Below, piece after piece: positions 5,758-61,700 of a stretch of 64,000 nucleotides of DNA. This DNA is from a virus (lineage: Duplodnaviria > Caudoviricetes): positions 3,633 through 67,632 of the IMG/VR virus record IMGVR_UViG_2788500332_000005. One strand, given 5' to 3'. Each line of letters begins with the position of its first letter. Position 1 is the first letter of the stretch. Position numbers and translations under genes: made by a program. The notes beneath the pieces are model-generated. The model saw nothing but the letters and a program-made list of their open reading frames with translations, made no database searches and was not told the DNA's origin.

Positions 5758-7149
5758 ATGGGGCAGGACGGATCAGGCCCGGCAATTCAATGGGCCAAGG
5801 GCGTTGTTATTGCGGACGAAAACCCGGAGTGGATCGTAACGCGCGAATCCCAGGTCGTCGGTTCCGTCCTTCTGCGCCCGGAAATCCTGAGCGCCATCCC
5901 GCAGCTTGAACCGGCCGACTTCTGCGTCGACGAGTACCGACGCGCCTGGAAGGCGATTCTCGGGTTTTCCACCGATCCCCACAAGATATCCCCATTCCCG
6001 GTGGCGCAGGCCGCCGGGGTGGAGCCGGCATCGCTGCTGCGGTGCGTGGCCTCCTTGCCGACGACCATCAACGCCGCCGACTACGCCCGCGATATCCGGG
6101 CTGCCCGGGCGCTGCGGGAATCCCTGGCGCATGCGCGGCAGGCGATGCGCGAGACCGATCCTGCCGGCATGCAGGTCGCCCTCCAGCGCGCCGCGCGGGC
6201 GGTCTACGAGGTCAGGGAGTTCCAGGATTATGCGGCCTCCGCCCTCGCGACGCGCATGCTGGAGAGATACACGGCGATCGCCACCGGGCAGATCGCGCCG
6301 GCGCCGAAATTCGGCATTCCCGCTATGGACGAGACCTTGGGCGGACTGGTCCCCGAGGACCTGCAGGTCTGGGCGGGCCGGCCCGGCATGGGAAAAACGG
6401 CCGTGACCATGTCGCTCACGCGCCAGGCGGCAAAGGCTGGTGCCTTCATCGGCTATTTCAGCCTCGAAATCGGCGAGCATCAATGGACGCCCCGCATGCT
6501 GGCCGACTGCGCCTTCGATTTCGGAGCCAGGATTGCCTTCAAGGCGATCATGCGCGGATCGCTCTACGGCCAGCACGTCGAAGATCTTCAAGACGCCGCG
6601 GCTGCCTTCTCGGAGGTGCCGTATCGAGTTTCCTTCACCGCGAGCCCGACCGTCGCGGAGATCTCCGACACCTGCAAGCGGTGGGAGGATGAGGAAGGGC
6701 GCAAGATCGATGGCGTGGTCGTCGACTATTCGGCCTTCGTGCGGGACACCGGCCAATATCGCGGCAGAGAGGTCAAGCAGGTCGGCGAGATCTTCCTCGA
6801 TCTGAAAAAGATGGCCCGCAGCCTCAAGACCTGCGTGCTGGCCGTGCACCAGCTCAACCGCGGCGTCGAGAGCCGCGAGGACAAGCGCCCGACCATGGCC
6901 GATCTCCGCGACTCCGGAGAGATCGAACAGCATGCGGACAGCGTCAACCTGCTGTTCCGGGAGGAATATTACCTCCAGCGGGAGATCGACAAGCACCCAC
7001 CGAACGAGGCGGAGCTGGAGAGCAAGCGCATCTCGGTCGAGGACCAGGTCGAAGTCATTACCGACAAGAACCGGGCCGGCCCGCCCGGAACAAATCGGCT
7101 GTTCATCAGCGTCGCGAACAACGCGGTGAGATCACTTGCCAAGGAATGA
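5758..7149 (+). CDS. dnaB: DnaB-like replicative helicase
   Basis: AGRPGMGKT, VVDY, QLNRGVESREDKRPTMADLRDSGEIEQHAD, KNRAGP. Confidence 0.95.
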   Translation: MGQDGSGPAIQWAKGVVIADENPEWIVTRESQVVGSVLLRPEILSAIPQLEPADFCVDEYRRAWKAILGFSTDPHKISPFPVAQAAGVEPASLLRCVASLPTTINAADYARDIRAARALRESLAHARQAMRETDPAGMQVALQRAARAVYEVREFQDYAASALATRMLERYTAIATGQIAPAPKFGIPAMDETLGGLVPEDLQVWAGRPGMGKTAVTMSLTRQAAKAGAFIGYFSLEIGEHQWTPRMLADCAFDFGARIAFKAIMRGSLYGQHVEDLQDAAAAFSEVPYRVSFTASPTVAEISDTCKRWEDEEGRKIDGVVVDYSAFVRDTGQYRGREVKQVGEIFLDLKKMARSLKTCVLAVHQLNRGVESREDKRPTMADLRDSGEIEQHADSVNLLFREEYYLQREIDKHPPNEAELESKRISVEDQVEVITDKNRAGPPGTNRLFISVANNAVRSLAKE

Positions 7150-39587: not shown

Positions 39588-39618
39588 TTGACGGCCACAA
39601 AAATCTCATCAAAATGAT
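39588..39618 (+). promoter_or_regulatory. promoter/operator of the antirepressor operon
   Basis: TTGACG at 39588 and CTCAT-CAAA-ATGAT at 39605-39618 over the -10 region. Confidence 0.65.
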
Positions 39619-39621
39619 ATT

Positions 39622-39840
39622 TGTCGCTCTCCACGCGGGAGCGCGGATCGAAACTGGCGCATTGCCGCCGACAGCCAAACCGGGTCGCTCCCGGTTAATC
39701 GTGGCCCGACCAAGCCACGTCACGTAGCGCAAGATGCGTGCCCGGCGAGGGGAAAGGCCGCGAGCCTGGACAGTTCCCGCCTTTCCCCTTGCCTCCCCAT
39801 AGCCGTCCTTGCGAAGCGGCTTGGAGCAACGGGGTCTATC
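39622..39840 (+). ncRNA. highly structured 5' leader of the antirepressor operon (c4-like role, inferred)
   Basis: Consecutive hairpins CCGGG/CCCGG, GTGGC/GCCAC, CACGT/GCGTG with a GCAA loop, and a long GGCGAGGGGAAAGGC/GCCTTTCCCCTTGCC stem. Confidence 0.5.
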
Positions 39841-40659
39841 ATGACCAGACGTAAACCCGCAAACACTCCTACCAATATACAGATCTCCGGCGTCGACATC
39901 TCTCGCATCGAATATCGCGGGGAACCCGTCGTCACGTTCGCCATGGTGGATGAGGTTCACCAGCGGCCCGATGGCACGGCCGGCCGGACGTTCCGCGAGA
40001 ACAGGACCCGGTTTGTGGAAGGGGAGGATTTTGTCTCCCTCGACCAACCCGACGAAATTCGTCGCCTTGGTTTTACCCGTCCTCAGGGCGGCACTCCGGC
40101 GAGCGTCATCCTCCTCACCCGTCGCGGCTACCTCAAGCTGGTCAAGCCTCTCACCGATGACCGCGCTTGGGCTGTCCAAGGCGAGATGATCGACCGGTAC
40201 TTCCTCGTGGAGCAAATAGTGGGCGCCGTCCCTCTTGATGCGGAAGCTCGGAAAACCATCGGCGGCATCGTCAAATCGGTGGTCCACTCCGAACTCCAGG
40301 CGATCGTCGCCCATGAGGTCGAGACAGCTCTCGCCGCCGATCCGCGCCGTGCCGTCCTCGCCTACGTGTCAGTTCGCCAACTCCTCGACGAAGCGAAAGC
40401 CCTAACCAAGGGGCGCCGCAGCCTCAATCGCCGTGTCGGCAACGAACTGCGCACCCGCGCCGTTCTCGCACCTCCGACCCAGCCGGTCTCGAAATGCCCG
40501 CATTCCGGCGTGTGGCTGTTCCCGCGCGACTTCGCGGCGCAGTTCATGGTGGACCGCGGCATGGAGATGGTCCGCACCCACAATGACAGAGTCCGCGGCC
40601 AGGGTGTGCTCAAGCTCGTGCGGTCTGAAAAGCACGAAGACGACAAGAAAGGGCGGTGA
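39841..40659 (+). CDS. ORF6N-domain antirepressor-like protein
   Basis: IEYRGEPVVTFAMVDEVH...FRENRTRFVEGEDF. Confidence 0.85.
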   Translation: MTRRKPANTPTNIQISGVDISRIEYRGEPVVTFAMVDEVHQRPDGTAGRTFRENRTRFVEGEDFVSLDQPDEIRRLGFTRPQGGTPASVILLTRRGYLKLVKPLTDDRAWAVQGEMIDRYFLVEQIVGAVPLDAEARKTIGGIVKSVVHSELQAIVAHEVETALAADPRRAVLAYVSVRQLLDEAKALTKGRRSLNRRVGNELRTRAVLAPPTQPVSKCPHSGVWLFPRDFAAQFMVDRGMEMVRTHNDRVRGQGVLKLVRSEKHEDDKKGR

Positions 40660-40662
40660 GTC

Positions 40663-41472
40663 ATGAACAACCCTGATCAGTCGAATTTGAACTTGGCTCT
40701 CTCGCCGTCGGGCATCGACGCCACCCGCCAGCCCGTCGTGTTCGCACGGGATGGTGAGGTGTTCGCCAATAGCCGCGATGTGGCCGCTGCATTCGAGAAG
40801 CGGCATGCCGATGTTCTTCGGGACATCGACAATTTGATTCAGAAGGAGCCGGAATTGGGCCTGCGCAATTTTGCACATGCCCCCTACAAGTTGCAATCTA
40901 CCGGTGAGCAGTTGCATCGATCATTCGATATGGACCGCCGGGCGTTCAGCGTCCTCGCGATGGGCTTCACCGGGGCGAAGGCGCTGAAGTGGAAGCTCCG
41001 CTACATCGACGCCTTCGAGGCCATGGAGGCGGAACTGCGTAGCCGGCCGGCCGTTGACCCGATGCAGGTGCTGAATGACCCGGCGGCGATGCGTGGCCTC
41101 CTGCTCACCTACACGGAGAAGGTGCTCGCCCTGGAAGAGAAGGTTGGCGAGATGAAGGCCGATGTCGACGCGCTCGACCGTATCGCGAAGTCCGACGGAT
41201 CGCTTTGCATCACCGACGCCGCCAAGACGCTTCAGGTCCAGCCGAAGGCGCTGTTTCGGTTCCTCCAGTCCTTCAACTGGATCTACACCAGGGCCGGCAC
41301 CAATACCTATATCGCCTACCAGTCCAAGCTCGCCGCCGGCCTGCTCGAGCATAAGACAACAACCGTCGAGCGCTCGGACGGCAGCGAAAAAACCGTGACG
41401 CAGGTCCGCGTCACGCCCAAGGGTCTTGCCCGCCTCGCCCGTGAGTTCCCGCCGGCCGTCCGCGCAGCATAA
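40663..41472 (+). CDS. Rha-family / ANT (KilAC) antirepressor
   Basis: NSRDVAAAFEKRHADVLRDI, LAMGFTGAKALKWK (Rha); ITDAAKTL...QVRVTPKG (ANT). Confidence 0.9.
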   Translation: MNNPDQSNLNLALSPSGIDATRQPVVFARDGEVFANSRDVAAAFEKRHADVLRDIDNLIQKEPELGLRNFAHAPYKLQSTGEQLHRSFDMDRRAFSVLAMGFTGAKALKWKLRYIDAFEAMEAELRSRPAVDPMQVLNDPAAMRGLLLTYTEKVLALEEKVGEMKADVDALDRIAKSDGSLCITDAAKTLQVQPKALFRFLQSFNWIYTRAGTNTYIAYQSKLAAGLLEHKTTTVERSDGSEKTVTQVRVTPKGLARLAREFPPAVRAA

Positions 41473-41523: not shown

Positions 41524-41916
41524 TCAATTGTAGGATATCCCTGCTTTTGAGCAAAATTCATTTGCGTCATATATTGACGCCGCGCCAGAACTAAACGCGC
41601 TGTTATCAGGTTGAAACGAAATATTACCTGAGTTTCTCAATAAATATCCGTAGTATGGTGCAAAACCGGCATATCCACCATATCCATTTTTTGCGTTTAC
41701 AAGCCCGCACACAACAACAAATCCATCTTTACTATATGCGGCAAGTGGTGACTTGAATTTTGCCGAATCAGGGTCGAGAAGGCGATCTTTTATCGCACCT
41801 TCAACCAAAGCAAGTTCATCAGCCGTCAGCTCATACCGTTGCCCAACTTCAAACCCATAAACCACGGTCGGCAAAACTACGATCGCCAATGCCCCAACCA
41901 GCCAAGCGCACTTCAT
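41524..41916 (-). CDS. AT-rich exported protein (moron)
   Basis: Signal-peptide-like N-terminus; LLDPDSAKF...CGLVNAKNGYGGY. Confidence 0.65.
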   Translation of the reverse strand: MKCAWLVGALAIVVLPTVVYGFEVGQRYELTADELALVEGAIKDRLLDPDSAKFKSPLAAYSKDGFVVVCGLVNAKNGYGGYAGFAPYYGYLLRNSGNISFQPDNSAFSSGAASIYDANEFCSKAGISYN

Positions 41917-42055
41917 TTGCCCCTCCGAGTTCACCGGCGAGCACCATACCACTAGTTGCGGATCAATCGCGTCCGGTTGACTCCGCATTCGTTCCCGTAT
42001 TGTTCTCATTTCGGGTTTGTGCCATGCTACCCGTCATGGGGGACGTGATGTGCAT

Positions 42056-42259
42056 CTACCCGGAGAGATACCCTTTTTCCCGAAGCCATTCCTTGAGAAT
42101 ATGGCGAATGGCTTCGGATCGCGACGGCTTCTCAAACGCCGTCTCAGCGAACCGCTCAAGCGCTTCCCCAACATCGTCCGGCAAGCGAACACCGGTTATC
42201 GGGGTTTTCCCCGTGGCAGGCCGGCCCCTCTTTTTGTGTTTAACACTTATTGACGTCAT
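42056..42259 (-). CDS. ribbon-helix-helix (Arc-like) regulator
   Basis: RGRPATGKTPITGVRL...SRSEAIRHIL. Confidence 0.85.
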   Translation of the reverse strand: MTSISVKHKKRGRPATGKTPITGVRLPDDVGEALERFAETAFEKPSRSEAIRHILKEWLREKGYLSG

Positions 42260-42350
42260 GATATAAGTGTTATACATAAAACACAGGCCGATGGGAAGCA
42301 GCAACTTCCACACCGGCCCTAACCCGGAACCAAGCGCCGCGGAGGCAACC

Positions 42351-42707
42351 ATGTCCCAAGCTGATAAGCATTCTACCACATCCGCCCATACCGTCGAAAC
42401 CCTGATGGCGCAGGCCAACGAGTTCGCCGAACGCATCGACATGCTCGACGCCGGCGCCACGGCCATGTTCGAGGGGCTGGTAATGGCCCTGCGCGGAGCG
42501 GAAAACGCGGCGATCGAGCGCCGGGCGCGGAGCGTTGCCGGCTGCGTTTACCAGCTTCGGGTCATGACACGCCTCGGCGAGGATCTGCTCCAGCTCATCC
42601 CCGAGGGCACTGCGGAGTGGCGCAAGGCCGACAGCATCGTGGGGCAGATGCACCGCGCCATTGCGGCCGTGGTGGGGCGTATCGAGGAACTGCCCGAGGT
42701 AGCCTAG
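42351..42707 (+). CDS. hypothetical protein divergent from the RHH gene
   Basis: GGAGG SD; MSQADKHSTT start. Confidence 0.6.
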   Translation: MSQADKHSTTSAHTVETLMAQANEFAERIDMLDAGATAMFEGLVMALRGAENAAIERRARSVAGCVYQLRVMTRLGEDLLQLIPEGTAEWRKADSIVGQMHRAIAAVVGRIEELPEVA

Positions 42708-42741
42708 CCTCCACTAACATCACCGAAGCGGTGAATGTCGC

Positions 42742-42773
42742 TTGACTGGAGTCAAAATTCTCATATAAATGAC
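42742..42773 (+). promoter_or_regulatory. promoter/operator of the ncRNA locus
   Basis: TTGACT (42742-42747), N16, TATAAA; CTCAT-ATAA-ATGAC at 42760-42773. Confidence 0.65.
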
Positions 42774-42776
42774 ATA

Positions 42777-42852
42777 TGCGGTGTGGAGCAGCCAGTAGCT
42801 CGCCAGCCTCATAAGCTGGAGGTCGCCGGGGCAGAGCCGGCCGCCGCTTCCA
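42777..42852 (+). tRNA. atypical tRNA-Met(CAT)-like gene
   Basis: Full 76-nt cloverleaf with encoded CCA; fMet-like D-arm; anticodon CAT at 42810-42812; T-loop is GGCAGAG, not TTCRANY. Confidence 0.7.
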
Positions 42853-43110
42853 GAATCCCGAGCGAAAACGCTCGTTGAAGCCTAGCCCAAGGGGCGACAG
42901 CAGAGAGCGTGAGTAGGTGGCGCGGCACGGCCCCGCGATGGACTGCCGGGAAGCTACGGCACTAGGGTGAGGACGGCGCAAGCCGGTGGCGCAGGATGCC
43001 TTTACCGATCCCGATGTTTCGCCCGAAAGGGCAACGAGAGCGGATCGCGTCAGTAGGGCTCCCTGCGGGTGACCGACGGTGTGGCAACCGGCCCAAGACA
43101 GCCTTTGAAT
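42853..43110 (+). ncRNA. candidate large structured ncRNA downstream of the tRNA-like gene
   Basis: No credible + strand ORF; nested stems CCTAG/CTAGG, CGCGG/CCGCG, TGCCG/CGGCA, CGGC-GCAA-GCCG, GCCC-GAAA-GGGC inside GATCC/GGATC, GCAGG/CCTGC. Confidence 0.55.
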
Positions 43111-43154
43111 ACCAATCACAAAAATGATATCAAAGCCCGATAAATATCATTGTA

Positions 43155-43183
43155 TTGACATTCAAACAGTCGCGACGTAGCAT
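43155..43183 (+). promoter_or_regulatory. sigma70-like promoter upstream of the head genes
   Basis: TTGACA-N17-TAGCAT; degenerate operator sites immediately upstream. Confidence 0.7.
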
Positions 43184-43242
43184 TATGTCATTGGGGTACA
43201 TGCGCCCCGAGCCTCCTGGTGGTTACCCGAGCCAACCCTAAG

Positions 43243-43272
43243 CCCGTCATGGCAACATGGCGGGTTTTTCTT
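43243..43272 (+). terminator. terminator/attenuator in front of the prohead protease gene
   Basis: CCCGTCATG-GCAA-CATGGCGGG-TTTTTCTTT. Confidence 0.75.
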
Positions 43273-43279
43273 TGCCCAG

Positions 43280-43678
43280 ATGCCGCAAATCGGAATTTCT
43301 TTCGAGTTCGCCAAGGCAGACGCCACCGGTGGCTATGTCCGCGGCTGGGCTTCCGTTGTCAGCGTCGCCGGCCAGCCGGTCGAGGATTGGCAGGGCGACG
43401 TGATTGGCATGGACGCGCTGAGGAAGGCCGCCCACCAGTTCATCACCGACGCCCGCGTCGCCAAGGCGATGCACCGGGGCGAGCAGGTCGGCGAGGTGGT
43501 GGAATCCATCATCATCGACGACGACCTCGCTAACGCACTCGGCATCGCCGACCAGCGGCGCGGCTGGTTCATCGGCATGAAGGTCAACTCCGACGCCGTG
43601 CGCAAGCGCGTCCGCTCCGGAGAGCTCCGGGCCTTCTCGATCGGAGGCCGCGGCAAGCGCGTGCCGCTCGGAGCCTGA
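43280..43678 (+). CDS. XkdF-like prohead protease
   Basis: VRGWASV...DWQGD...H...VVES...WFIGMKV...GELRAFSIGG. Confidence 0.85.
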   Translation: MPQIGISFEFAKADATGGYVRGWASVVSVAGQPVEDWQGDVIGMDALRKAAHQFITDARVAKAMHRGEQVGEVVESIIIDDDLANALGIADQRRGWFIGMKVNSDAVRKRVRSGELRAFSIGGRGKRVPLGA

Positions 43679-43679
43679 C

Positions 43680-44579
43680 ATGGCCGACAAGCACGAGATC
43701 ACCTCCATGATCCTCGACGAAGTCTCGCTCGTCGACGACCCGGCCAACCCGGAAGCGAACGTCGTCATCGCCAAGGCGCGCCAGGCGCCGCCCGACGACG
43801 ATCGTGCCGGCGCCGTCCGGGCCGAGATCGCCAAGGCGATCCAGGATCTCTCCCCAACCATCATCGAGCGGGTCGGCGCCGCCCTCCCCTCCGATACCGA
43901 AGCCGCCGATCTGGCGGCTTTTCTCTTGAAGGAAAAGTCGATGGATATCGAGGAACTCACGAAGGCGCTCACCGAAGCCAAGACCGCTCTCGATGAGGCT
44001 ACCAAGGTCACCAAGGCCAAGGACGAGGAAATCGCCAAGCTCAAGACCTCGCTCGAGGAAGCTGTCGCCAAGGCCAAGCAGGCGGACGAAGAACTCGCGA
44101 AGGCGAAGGCGCCGAAGAAGGAGGAGACCGAAGAGGACGTCCTCAAGTCCCTCCCCGAGCCGCTCCGCAAGCGCTTCCTGGCGCTGGAGGCCGCCGACAA
44201 GGCGAAGTCCGAGGAAATCGAGAAGATGCGCGAGGAGCGCGAGCTCGACGAGGCCATCGCCAAGGCGAAGGGCTTTGCCGGCGATCCCAAGGTGGTCGGT
44301 CCGGCCCTGATGCGCATCCGCAAGGGCAAGGGCACCGATGCCGATGTCACCGAGATCGAGCGCCTGCTGAAGGCTCAGGCGAACCAGGAAAAGACCAGCG
44401 AGCTCTACAAGAGCCGCGGCTCCTCGGCTGCCGTCGACGGCAATCCCGAAGACCTCCTGAAGGCCAAGGCCGAGGACATCGCCAAGGCCAAGAACATCTC
44501 CTTCGCCAAGGCCTATGCCGAGGCGCTGGAAGCCAACCCCGATCTCTACAACGCCTACGTCGAGAAGCGGCGCAGCTGA
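43680..44579 (+). CDS. scaffolding protein
   Basis: DEVSLVDDPANPEANVVIAK, then coiled coil with repeated AKA. Confidence 0.8.
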   Translation: MADKHEITSMILDEVSLVDDPANPEANVVIAKARQAPPDDDRAGAVRAEIAKAIQDLSPTIIERVGAALPSDTEAADLAAFLLKEKSMDIEELTKALTEAKTALDEATKVTKAKDEEIAKLKTSLEEAVAKAKQADEELAKAKAPKKEETEEDVLKSLPEPLRKRFLALEAADKAKSEEIEKMREERELDEAIAKAKGFAGDPKVVGPALMRIRKGKGTDADVTEIERLLKAQANQEKTSELYKSRGSSAAVDGNPEDLLKAKAEDIAKAKNISFAKAYAEALEANPDLYNAYVEKRRS

Positions 44580-44647: not shown

Positions 44648-45076
44648 ATGACCACTCAGGCCAATGGGCTGGATATCACTCGTCTTGCGGGTGCCGATCT
44701 CAGCTCGTCCCAGTATCTCTTCGTCAAGCTCGACGCGAACGCTCAGGTCGTCGTCGCCGGTGCCGGTGAGGATGCCATTGGCGTCCTCCAGAACAAGCCC
44801 GCCGCCGGTCAGGCCGCCACCGTGCGTGTCGGCGGCCTCAGCAAGGTCGTCGCCGGCGCCGCGATCACCGCCGGTGCCCGCGTGGCCTCCGATGCCTCCG
44901 GCAAGGCCAAGACCGCCGTAGCTGCCACCGTCAACACCTCGGACACCGGTGCCGCCGCTGACGCCGTGGTGGCCTCCTTCTCGATGGGACACGCCTTCGA
45001 GGCGGCGTCCGGCGACGGCCAGGTCATCGAGATCCTGCTCGCCCATTCCGGCGCTCTTCCCACCACCGCGGCCTGA
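44648..45076 (+). CDS. capsid decoration/cement protein (DUF2190-like)
   Basis: Ala/Gly-rich; between scaffold and MCP. Confidence 0.75.
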   Translation: MTTQANGLDITRLAGADLSSSQYLFVKLDANAQVVVAGAGEDAIGVLQNKPAAGQAATVRVGGLSKVVAGAAITAGARVASDASGKAKTAVAATVNTSDTGAAADAVVASFSMGHAFEAASGDGQVIEILLAHSGALPTTAA

Positions 45077-60371: not shown

Positions 60372-61700
60372 ATGAGCCAATTTGATTTCGGGGCAATCGA
60401 TCCGTCGAGCATGTCGGGAACGGAGCTGGCGGCCGCGCTCGGGTCGTTCCGCGATGCGTTGAACTCGCACCACTCCGGCGAATCCAGGCCTTCCTATGTC
60501 CAGGAAGGAATGATCTGGGTTTCGAAAGCCGCTACGCCCTACACCGCCTACTTCTTCGACGGGACCACCGATATCGCGCTGTTTACGATCGACCCGAGCA
60601 CCCACGCGAAGACGGTCCCGGACTATGCCCCCCTCGCATCGCCGGGTCTGTCCGGCACCCCGACCGCGCCGACGCAGAGCGCCAAGAACAGCAGCACTCG
60701 GCTGGCCACCACCGCCTTTGTGCAGGGGGAGAAAGGCTACAAGCGCGGTGTCACCGTACTCACCGCATCGACGACGCTGGGCAGCGCCCATCTGGGCAAC
60801 CTGGTGGTCTGCAACTCGGCGAGCGCCACCACCATGACGCTGCCGGCGGCATCGTCCTACACTCAGGGCATCCTTTCGCTGGTCAACATCAACACCGGCT
60901 TGGTCACGCTGTCGGGCAGCATCATCTACGACGGCGCAACCGTCACTTCGCTCACACTGCCGGCCGGCGCATCGATCGATCTGGTGTCCAACGGTACATC
61001 GTGGGTCGCCATCCAGCAGACGTTGCCGGTCAAAGAAGATGCCGAGTGGATTACGGGCACCAATACGGTGCCGGCGCCCATCAGCCCGGCGCAGCTGGAC
61101 GCGGCGGTCGCGGCGCTGGCTGGCGGTGGTGCCATTTCTTATCAAGAAATCCTGACCTCTGGCGTATGGACGAAGCCTGCTGATCTCAGCCCGGACGCCC
61201 TCATTATTTCCCTGCTGTGGGGTGGTGGCGGTGGTGGTTACAATAGCGGAGCGTCACGTGGCGGCGGCGGCGGCGGCTCATGTGCATGGGCTATCTGGAA
61301 AGCCTCTGCGTTGCCAGATGAGGTGTCCGTTACAATCGGGGCAGGTGGGGGACCGGCATCTGCAGGGGGGACGACATACTTTAACGACCTATATGCGGTT
61401 GGTGGTGCTGGCGGCACTTCTGCTACTTCCGTTGGCGGGGACAGCGGTTTTGGGGCTGCTTTTGCCGGGGGAGCAGGCGGATCAGGTGCCAGCTCTCCTA
61501 GCGCCGGAGGTAACTCAATATGGGGTGGTGCCGGGGGGGCTGGCCAATATAACTCTATAACCCGCGCTGGAGGAAATTCTATTATAGGCGGTGACGGCTC
61601 GGGTAATCTGAACAGCTTCACACCTGAAGTACCCGGAGGGGGAGGATCGAATAATGCCTCCGGTGCTGCCGGAATGGTTCGTCTGTTCATCATCGAGTAA
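60372..61700 (+). CDS. tail fibre protein with a Gly-rich C-terminal domain
   Basis: YAPLASPGLSGTPTAPT...LATTAFV; GGGGGG repeats; more AT-rich 3' part. Confidence 0.8.
   Translation: MSQFDFGAIDPSSMSGTELAAALGSFRDALNSHHSGESRPSYVQEGMIWVSKAATPYTAYFFDGTTDIALFTIDPSTHAKTVPDYAPLASPGLSGTPTAPTQSAKNSSTRLATTAFVQGEKGYKRGVTVLTASTTLGSAHLGNLVVCNSASATTMTLPAASSYTQGILSLVNINTGLVTLSGSIIYDGATVTSLTLPAGASIDLVSNGTSWVAIQQTLPVKEDAEWITGTNTVPAPISPAQLDAAVAALAGGGAISYQEILTSGVWTKPADLSPDALIISLLWGGGGGGYNSGASRGGGGGGSCAWAIWKASALPDEVSVTIGAGGGPASAGGTTYFNDLYAVGGAGGTSATSVGGDSGFGAAFAGGAGGSGASSPSAGGNSIWGGAGGAGQYNSITRAGGNSIIGGDGSGNLNSFTPEVPGGGGSNNASGAAGMVRLFIIE

Follow-up and report, generated by a model that had tools for sequence, protein, structure and literature searches.

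Closest Described Systems

The late leader of phage lambda, PR'–6S RNA–tR', is controlled by the Q antiterminator. The GOLLD and ROOL RNAs are several hundred nucleotides long, have conserved multi-domain structures, and are present in Rfam. HDV-like ribozymes typically carry a G-U wobble at the base of P1. The lambdoid coliphage HK022 contains two RNA-only processive antiterminators, putL and putR, and to our knowledge descriptions of put-type RNAs are so far confined to HK022-like phages. The put RNAs are approximately 70 nt long, comprise two stem-loops, and require no protein factor; their sites follow PL immediately or PR at a distance of about 270 nt (PMC9378689). In phages, HDV-like theta ribozymes are associated with tRNAs, often with tRNA-Met, the tRNA being within about 5 nt of the cleavage site at the 5' end of the ribozyme; the first J4/2 position of theta and HDV-like ribozymes is occupied by the catalytic C (PMC10879173).

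The stretch of DNA analyzed here, referred to as the window, spans 64,000 nucleotides and constitutes most of one 67.6-kb IMG/VR provirus record. It includes a non-coding, RNA-like region at positions 42853–43110, which the first-pass annotation described as a single ornate RNA. As read from the alignment of six distinct copies, only the last 70–90 nt of these 258 nt form a conserved folded RNA element, and the reading as an ornate 250-nt RNA overstated the extent of conservation. The core of this element (43036–43103, plus strand) shares several features with the put RNAs of HK022. It is about 68 nt long and consists of a first stem (7 bp with a possible extension) and a second hairpin, both supported by covariation. 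It is located in phage operon leaders, at the predicted start of transcription or a few hundred nucleotides beyond it; its flanks reveal no dedicated protein partner, and its unpaired bases are nearly invariant. The comparison concerns size, layout, and position as described for put, and the likeness is one of form rather than of aligned sequence. The hosts also differ, being alphaproteobacteria for the core and enterobacteria for put. Put suppresses termination in cis through binding to the beta-prime zinc-binding domain of the polymerase, an activity that is hypothetical for the core.

Genetic Setting of the Locus

The host of the prophage is a Pleomorphomonas-like alphaproteobacterium. The 118-aa ORF located just 5' of the candidate region (42351–42707) has an identical copy on a 5.89-Mb contig, which also carries a 58%-identical paralogue of this ORF that is attributed to an uncultured Pleomorphomonas sp. 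At the end of the window, host-like DNA matches three genomes from a single Hyphomicrobiales family with approximately 80% identity. The closest relatives are the Logan contigs encoding P0002–P0004, in which the neighbouring ORF is 83–92% identical.

Upstream of the candidate region, two antirepressor genes (39841–41472) are followed by a minus-strand gene (41524–42009) with a PHROG match (phrog_2320, E 9e-21) and by the 118-aa ORF. The candidate region itself is situated between a tRNA-Met look-alike and a late promoter and terminator preceding the head protease. Downstream, the XkdF-type head protease gene (43280–43678) is followed by a 299-aa ORF with no assigned function and only a weak PHROG match (43680–44579), a gene matching a scaffold PHROG and a Pfam cement family (44648–45076), and the major capsid gene. 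With regard to the ORFs preceding the region, a plus-strand ORF (41760–42266) overlaps the minus-strand ORF at 41524–42009, and PHROG support exists for the minus-strand ORF only. For the next plus-strand ORF, the most likely start is the ATG at 42351, which has GGAGG upstream, rather than the GTG at 42267.

The segment immediately preceding the protease forms a promoter–terminator module at 43118–43277. Its AT-rich plus-strand late-promoter region, P2 (43118–43183), contains the motif ATCA-N6-TGAT and the hexamers TTGACA (43155) and TAGCAT, separated by 17 nt, with 10 of 12 matches in the promoter scan. The P2 motif is common to the promoters of two protease relatives, L011 and L012, and P2 resembles the promoter of the core-bearing locus L066. 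The terminator scan identified an intrinsic terminator-like structure on the plus strand (43240–43277), consisting of a 12-pair hairpin (43240–43267) and a T run. The protease start codon (43280) follows 3 nt later, and the leader from P2 is 55 nt long.

Relatives of the protease were collected from 23 IMG/VR loci and two MAG loci, and the candidate sequence is absent from all of them. Four of the relatives (L010, L011, L012, and L014) have a genuine tRNA-Met directly before the protease. In L010–L012, the order is promoter, tRNA-Met, 20–190 nt, terminator, and protease, while L014 has the promoter and tRNA-Met with no obvious terminator seen. The spacers 3' of tRNA-Met in these relatives differ in both length and sequence. 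The presence of tRNA-Met in these four loci indicates that the head-operon leader is a place where tRNAs are kept in this phage group, and, more broadly, tRNAs as well as small RNAs accumulate in the leader preceding phage head genes. In the window, the module at 43118–43277 contains no tRNA, and an additional unit is found upstream, comprising a promoter (P1), a degenerate tRNA, and the candidate region. Since the relatives use the promoter–terminator–protease module without the core, the late operon does not need the core. By analogy with PR'–tR' of lambda, the layout of the module suggests Q-like antitermination: in both the window and the relatives, the first head gene is directly preceded by a promoter with a short leader and a strong terminator. 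This lambda-type module is separate from the core, which lies upstream of it.

The Putative Upstream Transcription Unit

The existence of a dedicated, operator-covered promoter had been proposed from the start, and a site of this kind was recognized by eye just upstream of the region. P1 is a plus-strand, sigma-70-like promoter in which TTGACT (42742–42747) and TATAAA (42764–42769) are separated by 16 nt, and the palindrome TTGACTGGAGTCAA overlaps it. It was not listed by the consensus promoter scan because its -10 element ends in A. P1 resembles the antirepressor promoter at 39588–39625, with CTCAT-N-AAATGA in common.

The predicted start of P1 transcription is located about 1 nt 5' of the tRNA look-alike, so that RNase P cleavage at the 5' end may be unnecessary. 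The look-alike (42777–42852, plus strand) is a degenerate tRNA-Met(CAU) that scores 42.1 bits with the Rfam tRNA model (E 1.7e-7) and is not called by ARAGORN. It has an encoded CCA, the T-loop GGCAGAG, and a U1-U72 mismatch, and is 77–79% identical to tRNA-Met genes of the host family. The terminator scan found no terminator between P1 and 43240, which supports the earlier view that the candidate region is probably co-transcribed with the tRNA-like gene. Elsewhere in the window, ARAGORN calls a tRNA-Gly at 61396–61468. The Rfam scan of the whole 64 kb misses both this tRNA-Gly and the look-alike, as the fast filters lose tRNAs on long inputs in this case.

The look-alike is followed by a GC-rich, lineage-specific non-coding spacer (42853–43020, plus strand), which includes the hairpins CGAGCG-AAAA-CGCTCG and CGGC-GCAA-GCCG. 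No homologues of these 5' 170 nt were found in INPHARED (50,697 phage records), in the 23 IMG/VR and two genome loci with a related protease, in approximately 400 genomes of the order, or in 27 genomes of the family. An 18-mer scan of IMG/VR for the 5' part gave chance matches only. A possible second, tandem core at 42896–42960 scores 5 bits (E 0.29) and is not significant.

Non-Coding Status and Overall Fold

Stop codons occur in all three plus-strand frames of 42853–43110, and GC content by codon position is flat (0.66/0.65/0.63), as opposed to 0.59–0.68/0.39–0.47/0.80–0.92 in the flanking genes (about 0.67/0.45/0.85). A 174-aa minus-strand ORF (42595–43119) has no match in Pfam or PHROG. 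On these grounds a coding reading was ruled out, in agreement with the original statement that the region contains no plausible CDS.

The global fold of the candidate is ordinary for a sequence of 65% GC. The minimum free energy of the plus strand is -105.7 compared with a shuffle mean of -102.3 (z = -0.71), and the minus strand gives z = -0.26. The dense nested set of stems attributed to the region thus folds no better than shuffled sequences. The individual hairpins that had been listed are indeed present: CGAGCG-AAAA-CGCTCG at 42859–42874, CGGC-GCAA-GCCG at 42974–42985, and GCCC-GAAA-GGGC at 43021–43032. The occurrence of two GNRA-capped hairpins of at least 4 bp exceeds that in dinucleotide shuffles (mean 0.08, P = 0.0025), in a test chosen post hoc. 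The repetition of GGTGGCGC at two junctions, also part of the initial description, is at chance level (P = 0.54), and the proposed long-range CCTAG/CTAGG pair found no comparative support. The second long-range pair, GCAGG/CCTGC, is at odds with the local structure that is conserved: CCTGC pairs locally inside the core, and the proposed partner is missing from every other copy. No internal or mobile repeat was found within the window.

The region had been left unassigned, and a search of Rfam 15 agrees with this. There were no matches at the gathering threshold in the whole window. At E<=10, the segment 42600–43350 yielded only the tRNA and three chance matches outside the core, and the 101-nt segment 43015–43115 yielded none. 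Known RNA families, including GOLLD, ROOL, HEARO, OLE, raiA, HDV-like ribozymes, group I introns, and tmRNA, were ruled out on the basis of these searches.

Copies of the Conserved Core

The core motif recurs in five other, unrelated (pro)phage contexts with 84–97% identity. The edges of the matching blocks are sharp, and the flanks are unrelated in pairwise comparison. The copy referred to as G413 was obtained in a DNA search of 27 host-family genomes, where it was the sole non-tRNA match; it is 93% identical over 84 nt and corresponds to 43021–43103 of the window. Pattern scans for further copies were built from this match. In IMG/VR they yielded L056/L057 (97% over 64 nt), L058/L064 (84%), and L099, and a metagenome scan yielded L066/L062. 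Additional pattern matches (L071–L079 and L083–L101) were judged to be due to chance on inspection, with the exception of L099.

A covariance model, R1, was built from five copies, with L099 left out. The model scores 85–96 bits on its five source copies, and it scores L099 at 68.6 bits (E 5e-16). No further copies were found in 151 genomes of the order with R1, in 401 genomes of the class by pattern, or in PLSDB plasmids and INPHARED phages. Two 25-bit model matches in family genomes were judged to be chance on inspection. The core motif is therefore rare by observation, and divergent members have probably been missed, because the collections were scanned by exact patterns only. A literature search with the motif sequence returned no paper.

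Some copies extend beyond the core on the 5' side. In the window, this extension (43021–43035, plus strand) consists of the hairpin GCCC-GAAA-GGGC (43021–43032) and part of the linker AACGAG. The hairpin is optional and is found in three of the six copies, with the loop GAAA in the window, GCAA in G413, and GAAC in L066; the CAACGAG linker is found in four.

Structure and Covariation

The structure was read from the alignment of the six copies. The core begins with an invariant GCGGAU, followed by stem 1 (7 bp; 43045–43051 with 43071–43076), which encloses the 19-nt interior AGUAGGGCUCCCUGCGGGU (43052–43070). Hairpin 2 (43077–43080 with 43087–43090) and the conserved tail GCCCAAGACAGCC (43091–43103) complete the element.

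Stem 1 is 100% paired in all six copies, and six of its seven pairs show changes on both sides, with variants such as UCGCGUC/GACGCGA, UCGAAGC/GCUUCGA, and UGAUCGC/GCGGUCA. Hairpin 2 retains 3–5 pairs, while its loop (GUGGCA, UGGCU, or GUAA) and its closing pair vary. For the whole structure, 98% of cells are paired and seven pairs are changed on both sides, values reached by none of 500 shuffles. In slid-partner controls, pairing drops to 34–54%. The thermodynamic z-scores of single cores are unremarkable (-1.65 to +1.85), and the case consequently stands on covariation. On the plus strand, stem 1 and hairpin 2 contain G-U pairs. Read from the opposite strand these would be A-C mismatches, which assigns the structure to the sense RNA rather than to duplex DNA or the antisense strand.

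Five of the six copies have the same interior, AGUAGGGCUCCCUGCGGGU. L099 differs at two positions, and the changes fit either a C-G to U-A swap in one register or a G-U pair together with a bulge change in the RNAalifold register. The interior GGGC (43056–43059) can pair with the invariant GCCC (43091–43094) located 3' of hairpin 2; alternatively, the interior GGCU can pair with AGCC (43100–43103). Either pairing would produce a candidate pseudoknot, which may form and, being invariant, is without covariation.

Collecting homologues and analyzing their covariation, as the first-pass annotation had proposed, consequently divides the region. The 3' 70–88 nt are conserved and covary, and the 5' 170 nt have no homologue. 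The suggestion that a new RNA class may be present holds to the extent that the region contains a new conserved structured element, which is confined to these 3' 70–88 nt. Regardless of function, the core is a clean, small RNA motif that is backed by covariation and absent from Rfam, and it could join motif libraries.

Genomic Contexts of the Core

All six copies are found in non-coding leaders, co-oriented with the next ORF and 70–330 nt upstream of it. Three of them (the window, L099, and L066) share the leader with a tRNA. The promoters of the core copies are predicted by consensus or by eye only.

The copy in the window precedes head genes. In L056, a promoter-like site leads into the core; a strong terminator follows after 95 nt, and beyond it lie small ORFs and a tail-fibre-like gene. 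In L058, a promoter-like site is followed by the core and, 120 nt further on, by a phage ORF. In both loci, the promoter-like site, recognized by eye, would let transcription begin on the core's first base. In L066, a promoter like P2 of the window precedes a GC-rich non-coding stretch of approximately 400 nt. The core comes next, with a true tRNA-Met directly 3' of it, and then a GC hairpin; the next ORF is HNH endonuclease-like, as recognized by eye from its translation. L099 consists of a promoter, tRNA-Pro, a GC-rich spacer of approximately 220 nt, the core, approximately 330 nt, and an ORF. This layout repeats that of the window (promoter, tRNA, spacer, core) with a different tRNA and an unrelated spacer. 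The G413 copy stands in the leader that opens a leftward early recombination operon (ATPase, PDDEXK nuclease, and MarR) in a prophage, beside a CI-like repressor.

In this prophage (L082 8425–9746), a CI/LexA-like repressor of 239 aa and a small HTH gene lie upstream of the core-bearing operon. G413 is the sole copy found in an early leader rather than in a late or structural one.

A scan-grade intrinsic terminator is located 3' of the core in two of the six copies, the window and L056. The terminator scan shows only GC hairpins with poor T runs in L066 and L099, and none in L058 and G413. ARAGORN finds no tRNA in L056 and L058, and none was found in the scanned 3-kb locus of G413. No protein family is common to the six neighbourhoods, taking 6–16 kb of flanks per locus and the whole window. 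A search of the window and of four host-family genomes gave no target complementary to the interior with up to 2–3 mismatches.

Proposed Function and Alternative Explanations

The core constitutes a self-contained element in the leaders of alphaproteobacterial (pro)phage operons and may act on transcription. The leading, though tentative, proposal is based on analogy and takes the core for a nascent-RNA module that acts in cis and resembles the put antiterminator RNA of HK022 in form and position. According to this proposal, transcription from P1 would produce an RNA consisting of the tRNA look-alike, the 170-nt lineage-specific spacer, and then the compact module at 43036–43103, in which the 7-bp stem, the almost invariant 19-nt interior, and the short hairpin would be followed by a single-stranded tail able to pair back (GGGC/GCCC). 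The nascent RNA would fold and act in cis on the transcribing polymerase, as put RNA does, and polymerases that have passed the core would read through downstream terminators, in this case the one at 43240–43277, into the head genes. The guess is based on the compact two-stem RNA, the near-invariant unpaired bases, the position in early or late leaders, the lack of a partner protein, and the two clear terminators. The absence of a protein family common to the neighbourhoods fits an RNA working with a host component. Several points count against the put-like reading. In the window, the core and the terminator are separated by a complete late promoter, P2, the relatives L010–L014 run their late module without any core, and only two of the six copies have a scan-grade terminator downstream. 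Furthermore, six members make a small family, in which the interior and the pseudoknot candidates are invariant. It is doubtful, though conceivable by the same analogy, that the core represents a second, unrelated class of put-like, RNA-only processive antiterminator serving early and late operons of alphaproteobacterial phages. Should the core indeed target the polymerase, it would rank as no more than the second kind of antiterminator RNA from phages known to work independently of protein, and it would provide a compact, portable part for transcription control in alphaproteobacteria.

Nearly as likely as the put-like cis module, and likewise short of an even chance, is a stable small RNA acting in trans, cut from a tRNA-linked precursor by tRNA-processing enzymes. 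Such an RNA, with or without the variable 5' domain, could serve as a sponge, decoy, or anti-defence agent directed at a target or protein of the host or of rival phages. Three of the six copies share their non-coding region with a tRNA, which is upstream in the window and L099; in L066 the tRNA starts directly 3' of the core, where RNase P cleavage would define the 3' end of the core. The promoter-to-terminator unit could be a stand-alone non-coding RNA gene of approximately 500 nt in the window and 190 nt in L056, and the lack of a common partner protein is compatible with this. An interior that is invariant in five of six copies while the stems vary is also what would be expected of a recognition surface. 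However, the search for complementary targets described above gave none, no terminator or obvious processing signal directly follows the core in the window, L058, G413, or L099, and the core is always in a leader and co-oriented with the downstream genes. Leader position and co-orientation, together with the compact fold, the invariant unpaired bases, and the possible pseudoknot, would also suit a cis leader responsive to a ligand or protein, such as a riboswitch-like aptamer or the site of a host RNA-binding regulator, that controls message stability or translation. This is rather unlikely, as the downstream genes are functionally unrelated (head, tail, HNH-like, and recombination), the distance to the terminator or start codon is 70–330 nt with no overlapping expression platform, and a promoter intervenes in the window. 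A site acting at the DNA level, for instance the core of a recombination or attachment sequence, a signal for packaging or replication, or an operator bound by a protein, could explain sharp-edged blocks of 84–97% identity in unrelated mobile elements that adjoin tRNA genes in three cases. It is very unlikely because of the compensatory changes, which keep pairing rather than half-site sequence, and the G-U pairs, which are A-C mismatches on the other strand; in addition, the core block lies away from the prophage ends, and its orientation always follows transcription.

Two further readings concern larger or catalytic structures. The whole 258 nt could form one large, ornate RNA of a new class, with a 5' domain conserved in structure rather than in sequence. 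L099 does repeat the order of tRNA, GC-rich spacer, and core, L066 has its long GC-rich non-coding sequence 5' of the core, and post hoc tests show GNRA-capped hairpins to be somewhat enriched in the 5' part of the candidate region and in the flanks of L099 (P 0.03 to 0.001). Nevertheless, the 5' parts of the candidate region and of L099, L066, and G413 do not align, the fold z-score is the unexceptional one given above, L056 and L058 seem to lack any 5' domain, and 42853–43020 has no homologue in the collections searched. The idea of a single RNA of about 250 nt is consequently difficult to maintain and is quite unlikely to be correct. With GOLLD and ROOL, to which the region had been compared, it shares being phage-borne, non-coding, and adjacent to a tRNA; the difference is that only 70–88 nt (43021/43036–43103) are conserved, in place of multiple domains, and that there is no Rfam match at any threshold. 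A new self-cleaving or processing ribozyme with an HDV-like double pseudoknot (P1, P2, P3, P1', P4, P2'), trimming the tRNA or leader transcript, has a still lower probability. The order of helices does fit, since GGGC(U) and a small CC/GG hairpin lie inside the 7-bp stem 1, which is followed by a variable, P4-like hairpin and then by GCCC/AGCC, able to pair back. The small hairpin of L099 contains one C-G to U-A change, although both P2 candidates are invariant or nearly so and lack covariation. A phage context with tRNA-Met nearby is likewise found for theta ribozymes (PMC10879173). On the other hand, the 101-nt query has no HDV-family match in Rfam even at E<=10, and the loop of the small hairpin (L3) is very short, with only 3–4 nt. 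The first pair of stem 1 is U-A rather than the G-U wobble typical of HDV-like ribozymes, and the base following hairpin 2 is G (43091) in all six copies, so that the catalytic J4/2 C is missing. The 5' flank GCGGA is invariant, although HDV-like ribozymes need no upstream sequence, and the tRNAs are 190–220 nt away (window and L099) or on the wrong side (L066) instead of within 5 nt.

Additional Observations at Core-Bearing Loci

Bradyrhizobiaceae possess a small RNA known as BjrC68. In L099, a segment approximately 60 nt 3' of the core (1082–1157) gives a sub-threshold match to this family, with 26 bits against a gathering threshold of 39 (E 1.8e-4). In L066, the hairpin-plus-linker sequence GCCCGAACGGGCAACGA occurs twice at 6490–6620, and a weak core-like stretch (6.6 bits, not significant) follows the first occurrence. 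This part of L066 may be a decayed tandem duplicate of the core.
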